64,000 nt of DNA from Candidatus Woesearchaeota archaeon (GCA_964527365.1 CAZGQV010000003.1:8668-72667), one strand, 5' to 3'. Counted from the stretch's first letter, positions 53,815-64,000 are shown. Notes: generated by a model from the sequence alone, not told the origin. Translations and numbers: made by a program.

Positions 53815-54174
53815 CTATTTAAATGTTTCTTCCTCGTCGATAAGATTCAAAACCTCGTCGTATTCCTGCTTAATTGGAATTTCAATTAATTTCGTAAATT
53901 TTCTCGACGGTAAAATGTTAAAAGAAAAAGGCTTAACTTTTTTTATGCTTACTACTTTTTCATTTTCATCTAACCAAATAACAAAAAAATCATAAAAAAC
54001 AAACAAAGAATGTATCGCCATTTTTAGGGGTTTATCAAAAGAGAACAGTAGAGCTTTTGCGTTTTTTTTTCTGGAAAACATAAGTCCAATACCTTCAAAC
54101 CACCAAGGAACTACCTTAACTTTAATTTTTATTTTTTTATTTTTGTAATTGAAACCAATTAATTTTTGTATCAT
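53815..54174 (-). CDS. DUF192 (COG1430) family protein
   Basis: WWFEGIGLMFSRKKN...LLFSF...MAIHSLFVFYDFFVIWLDENEKVV fits the DUF192 pattern. Confidence 0.5.
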   Translation of the reverse strand: MIQKLIGFNYKNKKIKIKVKVVPWWFEGIGLMFSRKKNAKALLFSFDKPLKMAIHSLFVFYDFFVIWLDENEKVVSIKKVKPFSFNILPSRKFTKLIEIPIKQEYDEVLNLIDEEETFK

Positions 54175-54541
54175 TTTTTCTACATCCCAAATAAACCACG
54201 TAACATTTATTTACATTTTTATCTGTAACCACGTCGTGGTGCTTAAAGCCCCCTCCAAAACTTTCTGGAATATGCATCAATTCATGAATCACAACTTTAA
54301 CTTTTTCTTCAGTAGACATAATATTAAATTTTTCACCTAAAAACTCAAGAGCATAAAATGCATCCACACCCATTGCCAACTGCATTAATTTGCCCAATGC
54401 ATGGCACCTTGCAATAGTTTGTTTTGTTGAAGAACCATAACTTCTAAAACATTTTATTCTATCAATTTTTACATGAGGAAAAACTCGCCTAGAAACATCT
54501 TCTGCTAACACTTGTAAACTTGGAGAAAATTCATATTTCAT
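54137..54541 (-). CDS. predicted zinc metallopeptidase-like protein (HExxH)
   Basis: VIHELMHIPESFGGGFKHHD, a zincin-like motif in a 134-aa protein. It overlaps the DUF192 start by 38 nt. Confidence 0.4.
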   Translation of the reverse strand: MKYEFSPSLQVLAEDVSRRVFPHVKIDRIKCFRSYGSSTKQTIARCHALGKLMQLAMGVDAFYALEFLGEKFNIMSTEEKVKVVIHELMHIPESFGGGFKHHDVVTDKNVNKCYVVYLGCRKNDTKINWFQLQK

Positions 54542-57346: not shown

Positions 57347-58828
<1,482 letters not shown>

Positions 58829-58865: not shown

Positions 58866-59453
58866 TTAACAACTTTCACCTGAAGAAATTCCTCTAAAAG
58901 AAAGTGTGTTATTATAATCTCCAGAAGGTTGAGCCGCAGGAATATCTAACCAAAACCTATAATAATTATTAGACGCGGGATTAATATTTTGTCCACATTT
59001 AACAGAACTTAAAGTGAAAGCTGTTTCATTTGATATAGAAGGCAAAGTCATATTTGATTCATTTGAACAACTATATGATTCATTTCCTAATTCTAAAACA
59101 TCTAAATATTGATTAGTTAACGCTGTATTCGCCCGAAGACAAAAATCAACAGCAGTATTTCCATCAGAAGAAACTAAAATATAATAATTAGTCAAATTAT
59201 TGGTCACATTATAATTTTCTGAACCATTTATATTTGATACGGGTAAAATACTAACATTTCCAAATAAAATTCCATTAGATAATGCTGGACTAAATTCTAT
59301 AGAAATTGATTTTGAAATTGTAACATTGGAATAAACATCTCCCTCAACAACATTTCCCTGTATAAAAAAATTATTTTCTAAAAAAAGAAAACTAATTGCA
59401 AAAACTAAAATAATTATCATTATAACAGTAAATGAATTAAAATTCCTCTCCAT
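58866..59453 (-). CDS. small secreted protein, paralog A of a surface-protein family sharing a conserved C-terminal module
   Basis: N-terminal hydrophobic segment MERNFNSFTVIMIIILVFAISFLFLENN. The C-terminus is NYYRFWLDIPAAQPSGDYNNTLSFRGISSGESC. Confidence 0.45.
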   Translation of the reverse strand: MERNFNSFTVIMIIILVFAISFLFLENNFFIQGNVVEGDVYSNVTISKSISIEFSPALSNGILFGNVSILPVSNINGSENYNVTNNLTNYYILVSSDGNTAVDFCLRANTALTNQYLDVLELGNESYSCSNESNMTLPSISNETAFTLSSVKCGQNINPASNNYYRFWLDIPAAQPSGDYNNTLSFRGISSGESC

Positions 59454-59466
59454 AATAATTAGATAC

Positions 59467-60102
59467 CTATTTCCTTTTTTTAATTTTCTTTTTAAAAGTT
59501 CTTTTAGTAAATTTTCTTTTATTCAAAATATTAACTAAAAGTAAAATTCCAGCAATTAAAGCAATTGCGAGATAAACAAGACTATAATTTCTTTTGTGAG
59601 CAATACATTGAACTTTAATATTAATTGGTGCAGAAACAGACATTTGTGTTTTTGATCCACCACTTCCACCCTTTACCACTTCTTCCTCAGTTAATTCAAT
59701 TACTTCTACTTCTCCCTTAAAATTTTGCATTTCTTCAAGACAATCTTGTTTACAAATTAAAAAACCAAATAATGCACAATCTTTTTCATAAACAGTTGGA
59801 GTTTTAAAACAAAATGTAACAGGCATAGCTTCTTCACTAGATGTTTCTGCAGGTACAAACTTTGTTTCAGCTTCAGCAGAATCTAAAATATTTAATAATT
59901 CATCAGAGAGTTGAATTTGAACATATGAATCTTCTGGCCAAGGATTATAAACTTTATATGTTAAACAAGTTTTTGTTCCTTCAGGTACTAAACTTGATTC
60001 TCTATCCCAACTAATTCCAACACCAGCCGACACCATTGGTAAAACCAGCATAGCTATAAAAATAAATCCCACTATTCCCCTCATTTTTTTATTACACCTC
60101 AT
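59467..60102 (-). CDS. membrane-anchored secreted protein (signal peptide, Cys-containing ectodomain, C-terminal TM and poly-basic tail)
   Basis: GIVGFIFIAMLVLPMVSA signal. The C-terminus is LVYLAIALIAGILLLVNILNKRKFTKRTFKKKIKKRK. Confidence 0.4.
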   Translation of the reverse strand: MRCNKKMRGIVGFIFIAMLVLPMVSAGVGISWDRESSLVPEGTKTCLTYKVYNPWPEDSYVQIQLSDELLNILDSAEAETKFVPAETSSEEAMPVTFCFKTPTVYEKDCALFGFLICKQDCLEEMQNFKGEVEVIELTEEEVVKGGSGGSKTQMSVSAPINIKVQCIAHKRNYSLVYLAIALIAGILLLVNILNKRKFTKRTFKKKIKKRK

Positions 60103-60136
60103 TTTTTTAATAATTGATTCTCTTTAATAAATTTAA

Positions 60137-60778
60137 TTAACATGAAAGTCCAGTTGTTACTCCCTTGAATGATACTGAATTATTATAATCTCCCGAAGGC
60201 TGTGCTGCAGAAATATCTAACCAAAATCTGTAATAATTATATCCTGCAGGAGCAATACTATTTCCTGATTTAACATAACTTGTCGTCATTGAAACTTGAT
60301 TCGCTAATTCGGGAACGGTGACACTAGTAGTTGTAGCATTACTATATGTTTCATTTCCAAGTCCAATAACCTCTAAAGCAAGACTTGTTAAACCAGCATT
60401 TGCTTTTGTACAAAAATCTATATTTGTGTTGCTATCAGCAGAAACAATTGTACAATAAGTTGTTGCACTAGAAGCTCCATCATAGTCATGTGTTGCATTA
60501 ATATTATTGGCAGGCAATGTATCTACACTACCAAAATAAATACCTTCACTTAAATTAGTGCAAAAATTTATTGCTAAATATTTTTCAATTGTAACATTTG
60601 AAGTTGTACTTCCTTCAGTCGCATGACCTGTAATTGCATTTACATTTTCAAAAAATAAAAATACTAAAGAAAGAACTAATACTGCAATTAAAATTACTTT
60701 GTACCAATTTTTTTCCCTTTCCATTAACCTTTTCACATGATGATTATTTATAAATGTTTTTGATTTGCAGAACTCCAA
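60137..60778 (-). CDS. small secreted protein, paralog B of the same family
   Basis: It aligns over its whole length with 58866..59453 (SNVTI.K...FG.V..LP.NIN...IVSADSNT.IDFC.KANA.LT...L..LGNETYS...). The C-terminus is YNYYRFWLDISAAQPSGDYNNSVSFKGVTTGLSC. Confidence 0.45.
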   Translation of the reverse strand: MEFCKSKTFINNHHVKRLMEREKNWYKVILIAVLVLSLVFLFFENVNAITGHATEGSTTSNVTIEKYLAINFCTNLSEGIYFGSVDTLPANNINATHDYDGASSATTYCTIVSADSNTNIDFCTKANAGLTSLALEVIGLGNETYSNATTTSVTVPELANQVSMTTSYVKSGNSIAPAGYNYYRFWLDISAAQPSGDYNNSVSFKGVTTGLSC

Positions 60779-60783
60779 TTTAA

Positions 60784-62916
60784 CTAAACAGCTTGGCCAT
60801 TACGAACAGCCTTGAATTGTAAATTATTTTTATAAACTCCTGCCGGTTGTGAAGCTGGAGCATCCAAGTAAAATTTCATATAAACCATGGAAGTTGCAAT
60901 ATTTTGTGCAATTAAAACATAGTTTGTCGTCATAGTAACTTTGCTAGGTGCTGTTACATTCGAATCATTCAAACTTATTGCATAAGTTTCATTTGCAAGC
61001 CCTAAATTATCCAAAGCCAAATTAAACAAATCACCATCAGCCCTAACATAAATATCGACAAGTGTGTTCGTTGCAGAAACATTCAAATAATAATCAGTAG
61101 AATCATTTAAATTATTCCCAATAGCATCCAAATCATCAGCAGGTAAAGTCAATAAATCCCAAAGGACCCCCTCTGAAAGTTCCTCAGACATAGAAATAGA
61201 AATTGCAGCCTCGTTCTCAATTGAAAAATTTACATAAGTAGAATTCCAATTTGAAGAAGTATCGCTACAATAATACCATAAACCATGATCTCCTGGCCCC
61301 AAAGTTATATCTAAATAAGTAAAATGTGTAACATTAGTTTGATTCATTGTAACATTACCATTCAAATCTAAATTGTATAAACACATGCTCCCTGGCTCAT
61401 TTAATGAAACATTAAAGAAAATATTTAAAATGGTATAATTGTTATTATTAATTGGGCTTTCAACATAAATTATTGGGGGAGTAATATCAATGATTTCCAA
61501 TTCATTTGAATCAATTGCATTAGAAGAATCACTAAGATCATAAACTTTCATCGAACATTTCCAAATATCTCCCAATGTTAAATTTCCATTTCCTAAAATA
61601 GAACCCAAAGTTGTTCCATTATTAATTCCGGTATGATTAACAATTAATTGTGAAACATTATTTTTTGAAAAATTAACTTCCACCGTCAACGAATCATTAT
61701 TATCAGCATCACTAATAAATCCCGTACAATTCAAATCAGTATCACTTTCATTTCTTCCATTCAAAGAATATAAATTAACAGAAGTTGGATCAATCGGAAC
61801 AGCATTGATAATTGTGAGTTCATTACTTAAAACTGTTAACCCATCGCCAAAAACATCGTTAGGTGTTGCTGCAACTTGCCAAGTTTCTCCCATCACTGTT
61901 TCTTGTGAAACCAATTTTTCCGAATGATGTCCAGCTAAACCTGCTTGATAATTTGTTTGAATTTGTTCCAGAGATAAAACCTTATCAAATATTTGAACTT
62001 CATCAAGTGAACCATTAAAATAATATCCGTCATGAAGTTTACCAACATAAACAGGATTTGTTGAAGAGAAAATATCTCCTACAGCATCATCATTAATTGT
62101 AACCCCTTGCTCAACTCCATTAAAATAAATTTTCTTTACAAAATTATTATACTTAACAACCACATAAGTCCATTGATTTGAATTCAAAGTCGAAGTAGAA
62201 GTAAATCTAATTTTACTTGAACCCAAATTTGTTCCTTCAAATCTCACTTGATTATTCGTTAAATGAACATTCCATTCAACCCCTCTATTTTTATCAACGA
62301 TTCCCGCAATTTGAGATTCGAAAGGATTAATCCAAAAACTAATTGTCAATTCAGACATTCCCTTCAAACTACTACTGTCATCAATATTAATATAATCATT
62401 AACTCCATCAAATTCATAACATCCACCAACCTGACAATCTGAACTCCATATCGGAACATTACTTGTAACTCCAGCTCCAAGAGTCCCATTATTTTCATAA
62501 GTTGAATAATCCCTCACATTTCCTTTAACTTTCCTTGTATCAAAAGGCATATTCAAAACAGCAATAGAATTTCCCTCAACCCTCCAATCAGTTATATTTG
62601 TTATTGCATCTTCGTCGTCATCAATTGAATCATAACTTATACTCAAATTTTCATTTGTAGTATCCGTCCCACTTGAAGAAGTCAAAATCAAATTTGATAA
62701 AACAGGCAAAACATTTGTTGAAAAGAAAAATCCTTCCAAATAAGTATTGGGATTAATGATAAAATTATTACTTCCCCCAGAATTTATCGAAAGAATATCT
62801 GCAGAAACCAAAGAAAATAACAAAATCATTCCAATAATTATAAAATATTTTAGTTTCATTTTATCATTTCCAAACCTTGGAAACTCCCGAACGATAATCA
62901 TAACAAATTTCTCCAA
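60784..62916 (-). CDS. large secreted protein with a LamG/concanavalin-A-like lectin domain and a C-terminal module homologous to the two small paralogs
   Basis: Signal peptide (LKYFIIIGMILLFSLVSA). LamG-like core YEFDGVNDYINIDDSSSL...LTISFWINPF...NQWTYVVVKYNNFVKKIYFNGVEQ...LDEVQIFDKVLS. The C-terminus is ...LGLANETY...YMKFYLDAPASQPAGVYKNNLQFKAVRNGQAV. Confidence 0.6.
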   Translation of the reverse strand: MEKFVMIIVREFPRFGNDKMKLKYFIIIGMILLFSLVSADILSINSGGSNNFIINPNTYLEGFFFSTNVLPVLSNLILTSSSGTDTTNENLSISYDSIDDDEDAITNITDWRVEGNSIAVLNMPFDTRKVKGNVRDYSTYENNGTLGAGVTSNVPIWSSDCQVGGCYEFDGVNDYINIDDSSSLKGMSELTISFWINPFESQIAGIVDKNRGVEWNVHLTNNQVRFEGTNLGSSKIRFTSTSTLNSNQWTYVVVKYNNFVKKIYFNGVEQGVTINDDAVGDIFSSTNPVYVGKLHDGYYFNGSLDEVQIFDKVLSLEQIQTNYQAGLAGHHSEKLVSQETVMGETWQVAATPNDVFGDGLTVLSNELTIINAVPIDPTSVNLYSLNGRNESDTDLNCTGFISDADNNDSLTVEVNFSKNNVSQLIVNHTGINNGTTLGSILGNGNLTLGDIWKCSMKVYDLSDSSNAIDSNELEIIDITPPIIYVESPINNNNYTILNIFFNVSLNEPGSMCLYNLDLNGNVTMNQTNVTHFTYLDITLGPGDHGLWYYCSDTSSNWNSTYVNFSIENEAAISISMSEELSEGVLWDLLTLPADDLDAIGNNLNDSTDYYLNVSATNTLVDIYVRADGDLFNLALDNLGLANETYAISLNDSNVTAPSKVTMTTNYVLIAQNIATSMVYMKFYLDAPASQPAGVYKNNLQFKAVRNGQAV

Positions 62917-64000
62917 TAGGAAAAATATCCCCTTCTGGAGTAGTTGACATCAAATCCGTTCCATCAATATTTTTAATACATAAATTTCCAGCTGTGCAAG
63001 CTTGGCTCATTTTTGTAAAAGTTCCTAAAGTCACCAGATCACAAGTTGAATTAATATAAGAATTTGTAACCCCATTTGTGAAATTATTAATGACAAATGA
63101 TCCAGAAGGAGCAGTTAATGGTCCATCTTCTCTCATCCAAATTTCTCCATAAAGAATTACAAATCCAGAAGTATTAATCGCAAAACAAACATCTCCTGCA
63201 GTATTTTTAATTTCAAAAACATCTTGACCATCAAAATTAGCAGGACACCCACTAGCGGGAGCAACACAAGCGCCAGCAGTACAATTATCACTTGCACAAT
63301 TATCATCATCACAACAACTTTGTCCAGTAGTTCTAGAACTATCAATAACACAACCTAAAGAATATGTGTTACAAACTAAACCATTTGTAGTATATCCTGT
63401 AGAACCCACATCACTATCACAAACATTCCCATTAGAACAAGAAGTCATTGTTCCATAATAATTAGTACCAGTATAACAAACGTCAACAGTATCACAACTC
63501 CCTTCAAAAACACAAACTCCATCTTGCTCATAACTTGATCCAACATTTGAATCACAAGAATATTCTGAAGTATAACCACACAAAGAACAATTTTTCTTAT
63601 AAACTCCCCCAGAACCAATACATACATCTCCTGAATCACAATCAACATCTGTAGTTGCAACTCCATCATATGCACAAATTCCATTATTATGATAAGCTGG
63701 ACCAACATCAGCATCACATTCATAAGCTGAATTAGGTTGAGCATCATTTTCAATCTCATAACAATCAGTATATCTTAATCCGGCAGAACTGGGACTAGCA
63801 ACTTCATCTTTATCACAAGACCAAGTCCCAGCATAATTTCTTGCACAAGTTCCACTTTGATAATTATCATAGGTATTCGAATTATCACTACACCGATCAT
63901 CATTAAAAGTAGAATTACAACCAGACCAACAAACCGCTTCAATACAAAATCCCCCAGTACATTCATCCCCATAAGTACACGATTCTCCATTCGATAAAAG
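62864..64000 (-). CDS. Cys-rich secreted protein (5' partial; the reading frame is open to the window edge)
   Basis: No in-frame stop is found between 63583 and 64000 on the minus strand. The translation is dominated by C, D, G, S, T and N, with recurring C-D-[SA]-[DN]-V-G modules. The listed start at 63583 is a non-ATG codon inside a longer ORF. Confidence 0.45.
   Translation of the reverse strand, partial: LLSNGESCTYGDECTGGFCIEAVCWSGCNSTFNDDRCSDNSNTYDNYQSGTCARNYAGTWSCDKDEVASPSSAGLRYTDCYEIENDAQPNSAYECDADVGPAYHNNGICAYDGVATTDVDCDSGDVCIGSGGVYKKNCSLCGYTSEYSCDSNVGSSYEQDGVCVFEGSCDTVDVCYTGTNYYGTMTSCSNGNVCDSDVGSTGYTTNGLVCNTYSLGCVIDSSRTTGQSCCDDDNCASDNCTAGACVAPASGCPANFDGQDVFEIKNTAGDVCFAINTSGFVILYGEIWMREDGPLTAPSGSFVINNFTNGVTNSYINSTCDLVTLGTFTKMSQACTAGNLCIKNIDGTDLMSTTPEGDIFPIGEICYDYRSGVSKVWK

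Follow-up and report, generated by a model that had tools for sequence, protein, structure and literature searches.

In the chaperone-usher pili, the adhesins FimH and PapG consist of a lectin followed by a pilin domain. The archaeal tafi (Tat-fimbriae) of Haloarcula hispanica comprises a LamG-bearing tip protein, two pilin-like paralogs of ~190 amino acids (aa), and a transmembrane (TM)-anchored terminal protein; its donor-strand assembly was deduced from AlphaFold, as is the one proposed here, and related DUF1102 clusters occur in Thermococcales and Archaeoglobus (PMC11821415). Other archaeal fibers described with the same logic are AbpA/AbpB (PMC9245690) and the threads and cannulae (PMC9715654, PMC12518558), and TasA, AbpA, and the cannulae serve as precedents for assembly without an usher (PMC9245690, PMC12518558). 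Here, we analyzed a stretch of 64,000 nucleotides (nt) from Candidatus Woesearchaeota archaeon (GCA_964527365.1 CAZGQV010000003.1:8668-72667), which we call the window and whose positions are counted from its first letter. It contains a five-gene locus in which three proteins share a C-terminal module. On balance, sequence comparison and structure prediction lead us to favor the reading that these proteins belong to a new archaeal pilin family, which would assemble by donor-strand complementation (DSC), carry a FimH-like tip, and be encoded in a cassette of DPANN archaea (Pacearchaeota, Woesearchaeota, Nanoarchaeota, and some Aenigmatarchaeota).

The window has a low GC content (~29%), and its close relatives among public sequences come from metagenome-assembled DPANN archaea that bear the names Pacearchaeota, Woesearchaeota, or Nanoarchaeota. 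The five genes form a co-oriented run on the minus strand and are transcribed in the order D, C, B, A, E. Their features are as follows (Ig-like, immunoglobulin-like; ORF, open reading frame; a slash marks a predicted cleavage site):

60784-62859, minus strand: gene D, tip-type protein, 691 aa counted from the ATG at MKLKYF; Sec signal peptide (...LVSA/D), conserved N-terminal segment DILSINSGG...EGFFF, LamG head, Ig-like repeats, C-terminal module
61957-62409, minus strand: LamG/concanavalin-like lectin domain of D, the variable head (Laminin_G_3, PF13385, E value = 5.6e-25, residues 170-320 of the 710-aa ORF)
60787-61212, minus strand: module copy in D (tip-type), residues 569-710 of the 710-aa ORF, placed by BLASTP and alignment
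60137-60724, minus strand: gene C, small subunit, 195 aa from MEREKNW; signal peptide, N-terminal extension, module
60572-60625, minus strand: N-terminal extension of mature C, HATEGSTTSNVTIEKYLA, candidate donor strand, after the predicted cleavage site ...ITG/
59467-60084, minus strand: gene B, 205 aa from MRGIVGF; signal peptide (...VSA/G), Cys-rich Ig-like sandwich, disordered GGSGGS loop, final beta-strand, TM helix, basic tail
58866-59453, minus strand: gene A, small-subunit paralog, 195 aa, between genes B and E
59301-59354, minus strand: N-terminal extension of mature A, NVVEGDVYSNVTISKSIS, candidate donor strand, aligned with the C extension (extension profile, E value = 4.4e-10)
57347-58828, minus strand: gene E, 493 aa, cassette-terminal gene, proposed donor-only membrane anchor; signal peptide, extension-like N terminus, ~140-aa domain, CGDGVCEGDE..CPADC motif, 10-Gly tract, two beta-rich regions, TM helix, conserved cytoplasmic tail
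58709-58765, minus strand: N-terminal segment of E, AAAEGSSSSEVHISGFRIL, aligned with the extension of the small subunits (weak in the window copy, E value = 6.1)

Comparison of the three module-bearing proteins bore out most of an initial annotation of the locus, which had called A and C full-length paralogs and had seen a segment of D aligning with their C-terminal halves. A and C are 50% identical over 195 aa without gaps (BLASTP, E value = 2e-69). The similarity to D survived statistical alignment, with C matching the 710-aa ORF at 37% identity over 147 aa (E value = 6e-21) and A matching it at 40% identity over 148 aa (E value = 7e-23). The shared C-terminal module is real, but it is longer than the ~110 aa first given for it, as the alignments span ~147 aa; this region is the whole mature small protein after the signal peptide and N-terminal extension. 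In D, the module reaches position 61212, ~60 nt past the end of 61150 originally drawn. The size of 195 aa for A was right, whereas those of 213 aa (C) and 710 aa (D) arose because upstream TTG starts had been taken; the likely ATG starts give 195 and 691 aa. The 195-aa form of C is 100% identical to a database protein (P0001), and of the two paralogs it is C that is better conserved, with 60-64% identity to other species, A being the more divergent copy. The quoted motifs (LGNETY, YYRFWLD/MKFYLD, and AQPSGDYNN/SQPAGVYKN) were all recovered, as was the terminal Cys of the paralogs, which covaries with the internal Cys of a DFC motif. Profile searches found exactly three module copies in the window. 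The copy in D is fused directly onto the preceding Ig-like domain, lacks the Cys pair, and has K, not R, at the variable position of Y(R/K)F. These proteins are very densely set with N-glycosylation sequons: A has 10, C has 6, D has 24, and an 887-aa beta-helix homolog has 40. One sequon lies within the conserved extension (SNVT), and B has 0 to 1.

We then compared the five proteins with named families. A, B, C, and E had no match in Pfam or NCBIfam, while D matched Laminin_G_3 (E value = 5.6e-25) and, in its LamG region alone, NCBIfam TafC (44.6 bits, against a cutoff of 410). A Pfam scan of 61 aligned family members at an E value of ≤1 returned no recurrent family: none of the 61 matched DUF1102, Peptidase_M73/TasA, SCPU, or Fimbrial, and 4 gave weak matches to Flp1_like (best E value = 0.012). 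Nor did A and C match Fimbrial, SCPU, or related Pfam families at an E value of ≤1. Searches of all PDB sequences with C (phmmer) and with the family profile yielded chance matches only (best family-profile E value = 0.82), and those with E and with the B profile were negative or at chance level (phmmer or hmmsearch). The module is thus not a named domain in Pfam, NCBIfam, or the PDB sequences, in keeping with the initial annotation, which did not recognize it as one. The N termini lack an RR motif and are of the Sec type, in which xTG or VSA comes after a long hydrophobic stretch. They also differ from the class III signal of archaeal type IV pilins in that the hydrophobic segment precedes TG and the mature N terminus is polar (HATEGSTTSN...). 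A literature search for DPANN archaea together with donor-strand pili turned up a general 2018 review and, within the searchable library, no paper linking the two.

To describe the fold of the module, we used an AlphaFold2 model of a single chain. The model of mature C, built from an alignment of 46 sequences, had a predicted local distance difference test (pLDDT) score of 88.6 and a predicted template modeling (pTM) score of 0.81 and showed eight strands packed into a beta-sandwich over residues 22-160. For the first ~20 mature residues (ITGHATEGSTTSNVTIEKY), pLDDT was 49-60 and no secondary structure was predicted, with the rest of the model above 90; this unpacked extension is nonetheless well conserved among the 46 homologs. 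Structural-comparison figures for the module model were highest for the TLP-1b pond fibril (7.3) and CsuA/B (7.2), followed by FimI (6.7), CupE (6.5), FimG (6.4), Pyrobaculum AbpA (6.3), and the Sulfolobus Saci_0406 thread, PapA, and the DUF1102 protein Hyper2 (6.1 each), and were lowest for TasA and CanX (5.2 each). An independent Foldseek run found nothing at an E value of ≤1e-3, and its top 50 were nearly all donor-strand pilins (CfaB, the thread, CsuA/B, FimA, CanA, SafA, Caf1, PapA, PapH, PapG, and FimH-type pilin domains). The structural matches are weak, but the predicted beta-sandwich of the module most resembles the donor-strand pilins. The TLP-1a/b environmental fibrils (CryoSeek, PDB 9ikk) were considered as members of the same family and set aside, given 13% identity, no sequence match, and their bacterial attribution. 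TLP-1 is attributed to bacteria, its closest predicted structure being from Flavobacteriales, and has a 237-residue protomer whose donor is protomer n+4 (PMC11494351).

A profile search, which the initial annotation had suggested, was run with a module profile (A2) that combined small and large copies against 1.84 billion cluster representatives. It returned 647 clusters at an E value of ≤1e-3 and 453 at ≤1e-10. By length, the best 150 of the 647 clusters divide into 80 stand-alone proteins of ≤235 aa, 21 of 236-350 aa, 24 of 351-1000 aa, and 25 of >1000 aa, and in 147 of these 150 the module ends ≤8 residues from the C terminus, across proteins of 195-3174 aa. Stand-alone and C-terminally fused forms both exist, as had been described for the window, and the fusion partners are far broader than LamG: heads consist of one to four LamG domains, a right-handed beta-helix/NosD, Big_13, DUF2341, GLUG, or Ig-like repeats, or are absent. 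The constant co-occurrence with LamG/adhesin proteins that had been raised gave way, on inspection, to variable adhesin-like heads for which LamG is not specific. A "headless" form of 387 aa has a signal peptide, the conserved DVISINSGG...EGFFF segment, two Ig-like domains, and the module. At one locus (L004), a beta-helix head replaces LamG in the protein at the D position, the Ig-plus-module end is unchanged, and a 2402-aa module-bearing protein is encoded just upstream.

The strict C-terminal position, together with the C-terminal Cys of the small proteins, is the sole support for a sortase- or archaeosortase-type sorting signal that would be removed or covalently attached, the kind of sorting logic that the initial annotation had entertained. 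The sequences contradict it. The C terminus is a confidently folded 145-aa domain without a tripartite signal, and the ends of A, C, and D (...SFKGVTTGLSC and ...KAVRNGQAV) have no hydrophobic helix, basic tail, LPXTG, or PGF-CTERM- or PEF-CTERM-like motif. The large proteins also lack the Cys, and no sortase or archaeosortase was called beside the four cassettes whose neighbors carry Pfam labels. We therefore regard a sorting signal as very improbable.

Two classes of module can be told apart. In small-type modules, the internal Cys (DFC motif) and the C-terminal Cys are both present in 254 of 271 cases, and in large-type modules both are absent in 109 of 123; the ten large proteins with both Cys residues include ~290-aa variants of the shaft type. 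This both-or-neither pattern suggests an intramolecular disulfide that only the shaft type would have. At the R/K position of Y(R/K)F(W/Y)LD, R marks the small types and K the large types, and residues L40, P41, D73, N94, and E95 of mature C are kept in both. Most of the giant module-bearing proteins (1273-3174 aa; P0235, P0259, P0281, P0217, P0252, P0180, and others) begin with a conserved motif of ~40 aa, M[VA]YKRY..R.GK.FGPYYY.[ST]YRD..GK....Y, followed by a TM segment. From its sequence, the motif looks like a cytoplasmic element ahead of a signal-anchor, and a Pfam scan of P0180, P0217, and P0281 gave no family over this region. Two ~290-aa shaft-type proteins (P0228 and P0201) carry ~100 charged, coiled-coil-like cytoplasmic residues before a TM segment and an ITG site, a layout that suggests regulated or unusual export of some subunits.

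Next, we looked into how the genes are arranged across species, using one genome per GTDB species and a pattern-seeded scan, a design in which distant lineages may be missed. We obtained 48 species-level loci, all from DPANN archaea and two of them labeled Aenigmatarchaeota. With hidden Markov models for the module, B, and E, a large-module protein, one or more small subunits, B, and E were found on one strand in 40 of the 48 loci, the remaining 8 being interrupted by contig ends. The order is a large module-ended protein (322-2621 aa), one to three small subunits, B, and E, with B sometimes sitting between two small subunits; an E-type gene is present in 44 of the 48 loci and is always the last gene of the cassette. 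On four longer contigs with Pfam labels, the cassette always adjoins the same GTPase and housekeeping genes. Beside these four cassettes there was no signal peptidase, sortase, usher, or ATPase, and no usher-sized beta-barrel gene was seen in the cassette or among its labeled neighbors. We looked for, and did not find, two orthologous groups (an adaptor and a major pilin) among the small subunits: they cluster by lineage, and many loci encode just one of them. One 698-aa protein (P0148) is a read-through fusion of a small subunit with an E-type protein, either natural or an assembly artifact, and confirms the adjacency of the two.

The small subunits and E-type proteins have a second element in common. 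In small subunits, the sequence that follows the hydrophobic signal segment is xTG[HYNF]ATEGSTTSNVTIxKYLAI, which includes the conserved extension of ~18 residues. When a 21-column profile of this extension was searched against the 1255 ORFs of the 48 loci, its only matches outside the module proteins were E-type proteins (13 of 44 at an E value of ≤0.01 and 22 of 44 at ≤1), and 1064 other ORFs gave no match at an E value of ≤1. In E-type proteins, the match always directly follows the N-terminal hydrophobic segment (for example, TGFATEQSSPSNVTV). An hhalign comparison of the module family with E aligned just 23 N-terminal columns (E value = 3.5e-4), and the E profile reciprocally matched the N terminus of C; E and the small subunits have their first ~16 mature residues in common. 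No extension-like segment of this kind is present in D or B, whose signal peptides are of the ordinary ...VSA/ form.

One could also read the module as a carbohydrate-binding or lectin-like beta-sandwich that attaches its carriers to glycans of their own envelope or of a host, the small proteins then being secreted lectins. We consider this quite improbable. It leaves unexplained the conserved, unpacked extension, the fact that E shares it, the strict C-terminal position of the module, and the fixed cassette with its two membrane proteins, and no carbohydrate-binding module (CBM) family was matched by sequence in the Pfam scans.

The two membrane proteins of the cassette have distinct layouts. 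The model of B (pLDDT 84) shows an Ig-like sandwich (residues 3-111), a disordered GGSGGS loop, a confident last strand (residues 130-139), and a TM helix. This last beta-strand (TQMSVSAPINIKVQC) is tied to the Ig-like core by the disordered GGSGGS leash just ahead of the TM helix, a layout resembling that of engineered self-complemented pilins. B is a conserved member of the cassette and possibly a membrane-tethered chaperone or assembly platform. E has a run of 10 glycines, a CGDGVCEGDETSVTCPADC motif, and, after the TM helix, a conserved tail (LPxEVPKLP) that hints at a cytoplasmic partner.

The elements are distributed over the cassette as would be expected for a polar donor-strand fiber: large proteins have the module only, small subunits have the extension and the module, and E has an extension-like N terminus and an anchor but no module. 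We infer the following scheme. After Sec export and cleavage behind the conserved TG, the N-terminal strand of each small subunit would enter the groove of the module distal to it, giving a linear shaft. The large protein would cap the distal tip, because it has only the acceptor module, and any module-bearing protein could plug in there. The N terminus of E would fill the last proximal groove, and its TM helix would tie the fiber to the membrane. B may, speculatively, act as a holder or chaperone during assembly, which would be self-driven, as in TasA, AbpA, and the cannulae, because no usher was found among the labeled neighbors of the cassette. The initial annotation had suggested a polymerization or donor-strand function; the predicted fold and the operon logic agree with the suggestion, whereas polymerization itself stays at the level of deduction. 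More tentatively, and at somewhat less than even odds in our judgment, the cassette would encode a lineage-specific chaperone- and usher-free pilus whose distal end is a universal socket for any module-ended secreted protein, from headless forms of 390 aa to multi-LamG giants of 3000 aa.

Several observations weigh against this scheme. The tip protein D still carries a homolog of the extension (NFSIEN...) and could use it to complement its own module. Many giant module-bearing proteins have an N-terminal TM segment, which, if uncleaved, would anchor them by the wrong end for a tip protein. In the window, the match of E (AAEGSSSSEVHISGF) to the extension profile is weak (E value = 6.1), and much of the N-terminal similarity between E-type proteins and small subunits resides in TGxATE. 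A few secreted ORFs unrelated to the cassette (at loci L011, L017, L024, and L045) likewise have an N-terminal hydrophobic segment and then xTG[KY], and xTG is therefore probably the usual signal-peptidase site of the lineage. Once TGxATE is left out, the remaining strand part, SNVT[IV], falls short of significance in E (best E value = 0.035). For this reason we restrict the claim to the combined segment of ~16 residues.

The main rival, ahead of glycan binding, a lattice or sheath, and a sorting signal in that order, takes the module for a one-step docking domain: large proteins would be fastened singly to E or B by strand insertion, and the small proteins would be spacers, caps, or competitors. 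Such docking would fit a module that is C-terminal on a huge range of surface proteins and always adjacent to the genes for the membrane-anchored E and B, the former with an extension-like N terminus. Many loci also have a single small subunit. However, the stand-alone proteins possess both extension and module, precisely the combination that a repeating unit requires, no other members are as conserved or as numerous (80 of the best 150 clusters), and the pilin-like fold matches are mainly to shaft subunits. We consider docking unlikely, though the most credible of the alternatives.

A further possibility is that the small proteins build a two-dimensional surface layer (S-layer) or sheath and that the module inserts large proteins into the lattice. 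In favor of a lattice, these proteins are abundant, conserved, secreted, and rich in sequons (6-10 per 195 aa), their genomic position is conserved and core, and subunits of the DSC type can also make tubes or sheets, as in the cannulae and Hyper2 (PMC12518558). Against a lattice, the fold matches are mostly to subunits of linear pili, no S-layer family was matched in the Pfam and NCBIfam scans, and the split of donor and acceptor elements over tip, shaft, and anchor suits a polar fiber better. We rate it as improbable, slightly more so than glycan binding.

How, then, does a donor-strand pilus of this kind compare with the described systems? Chaperone-usher pili (FimA/FimG/FimH, PapA/PapG, CsuA/B, and CfaB) provide the best structural matches of the module's predicted Ig-like sandwich. 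Their subunits consist of an N-terminal extension and an acceptor domain, as those proposed here would, with one or more shaft or adaptor paralogs in one operon, and the domain order of D, an N-terminal lectin-type head and a C-terminal pilin domain, is that of FimH and PapG. In contrast, there is no sequence similarity (Fimbrial and SCPU were unmatched), and the organism is a single-membrane archaeon. The locus has no usher and no two-domain PapD chaperone, B being a single Ig-like domain with a TM helix, its proposed base is a TM-anchored donor-only protein rather than a PapH-type terminator, and its heads are far more varied and can be giant.

The tafi is similar in being an archaeal operon with a LamG tip, two pilin-like paralogs, and a TM anchor, and the LamG domain of D matches the TafC model. 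However, TafC has a pilin-like N terminus and a C-terminal LamG and donates a strand (PMC11821415), whereas the order in D is reversed; the anchor TafF accepts a strand (PMC11821415), whereas the candidate anchor E would donate one. Our locus also lacks twin-arginine signals and a DUF1102 match, and the four labeled loci have no TafD (S26) peptidase or TafG/DUF5305 neighbor. As for the TasA superfamily (B. subtilis TasA/TapA, Pyrobaculum AbpA/AbpB, Sulfolobus Saci_0406 threads, and Pyrodictium cannulae), Peptidase_M73 (PF12389) was matched by 0 of 61 family members, no PDB sequence was matched, and no SipW-type peptidase stood among the labeled neighbors of the four cassettes. C-terminal fusion of the module to polymorphic giants is not mentioned in the available portions of the corresponding reports (PMC9245690, PMC9715654, PMC12518558). 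In logic, the locus resembles chaperone-usher pili, the tafi, and TasA-type fibers alike, and every sequence-based test of membership that we ran came out negative. We see here a pilin-like family that is unrelated to theirs in sequence and comes with accessory proteins of its own; its distinctive feature is a module that mounts very polymorphic, partly giant heads.

The surroundings of the cassette differ on its two sides. Upstream of D in the window lies the following gene:

62864-64000 (running past the window end), minus strand: C-terminal part of a Peptidase_S8 protein, 1119 aa, with 66 Cys in repeated Cys-rich units

This gene adjoins D in the window lineage only, other lineages having different giant proteins or toxin-antitoxin-like genes there. 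Downstream of the cassette in the window are housekeeping genes, including those for a YchF/YGR210-type GTPase, Kae1/TsaD, and gyrase. A PhageMetallopep (PF18894) gene that overlaps a DUF192-like gene (window positions 53815-54541) is kept downstream of the cassette in the syntenic loci L001-L007, and beside this pair are the genes for the YGR210-type GTPase, Kae1/TsaD, L7Ae, S28e, and gyrase B. Given these syntenic core genes, the cassette lies in a stable core region and not in an island.

A large part of archaeal diversity belongs to the DPANN archaea, whose cultivated members live attached to host cells. We know of no attachment apparatus defined for the uncultured Pacearchaeota and Woesearchaeota. 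The cassette is a concrete candidate for an attachment organelle, because it combines a pilin-like shaft with highly polymorphic heads of the lectin, beta-helix, or Ig-repeat kind. The module profile can help to annotate "hypothetical" proteins from several hundred clusters, some of them giants of 2000-3000 aa, and the cassette can be tested by heterologous expression and cryo-electron microscopy without culturing the organism. If the proposed assembly is true, it would add a sequence-unrelated family to the archaeal donor-strand fibers, and its FimH-type order (lectin first and pilin last), the reverse of that in the tafi, bears on whether this pilus design originated once or repeatedly. Under the more tentative reading of a universal socket, these host-dependent cells would have an exchangeable, fast-evolving repertoire of adhesins for hosts or substrates on one shaft and anchor.

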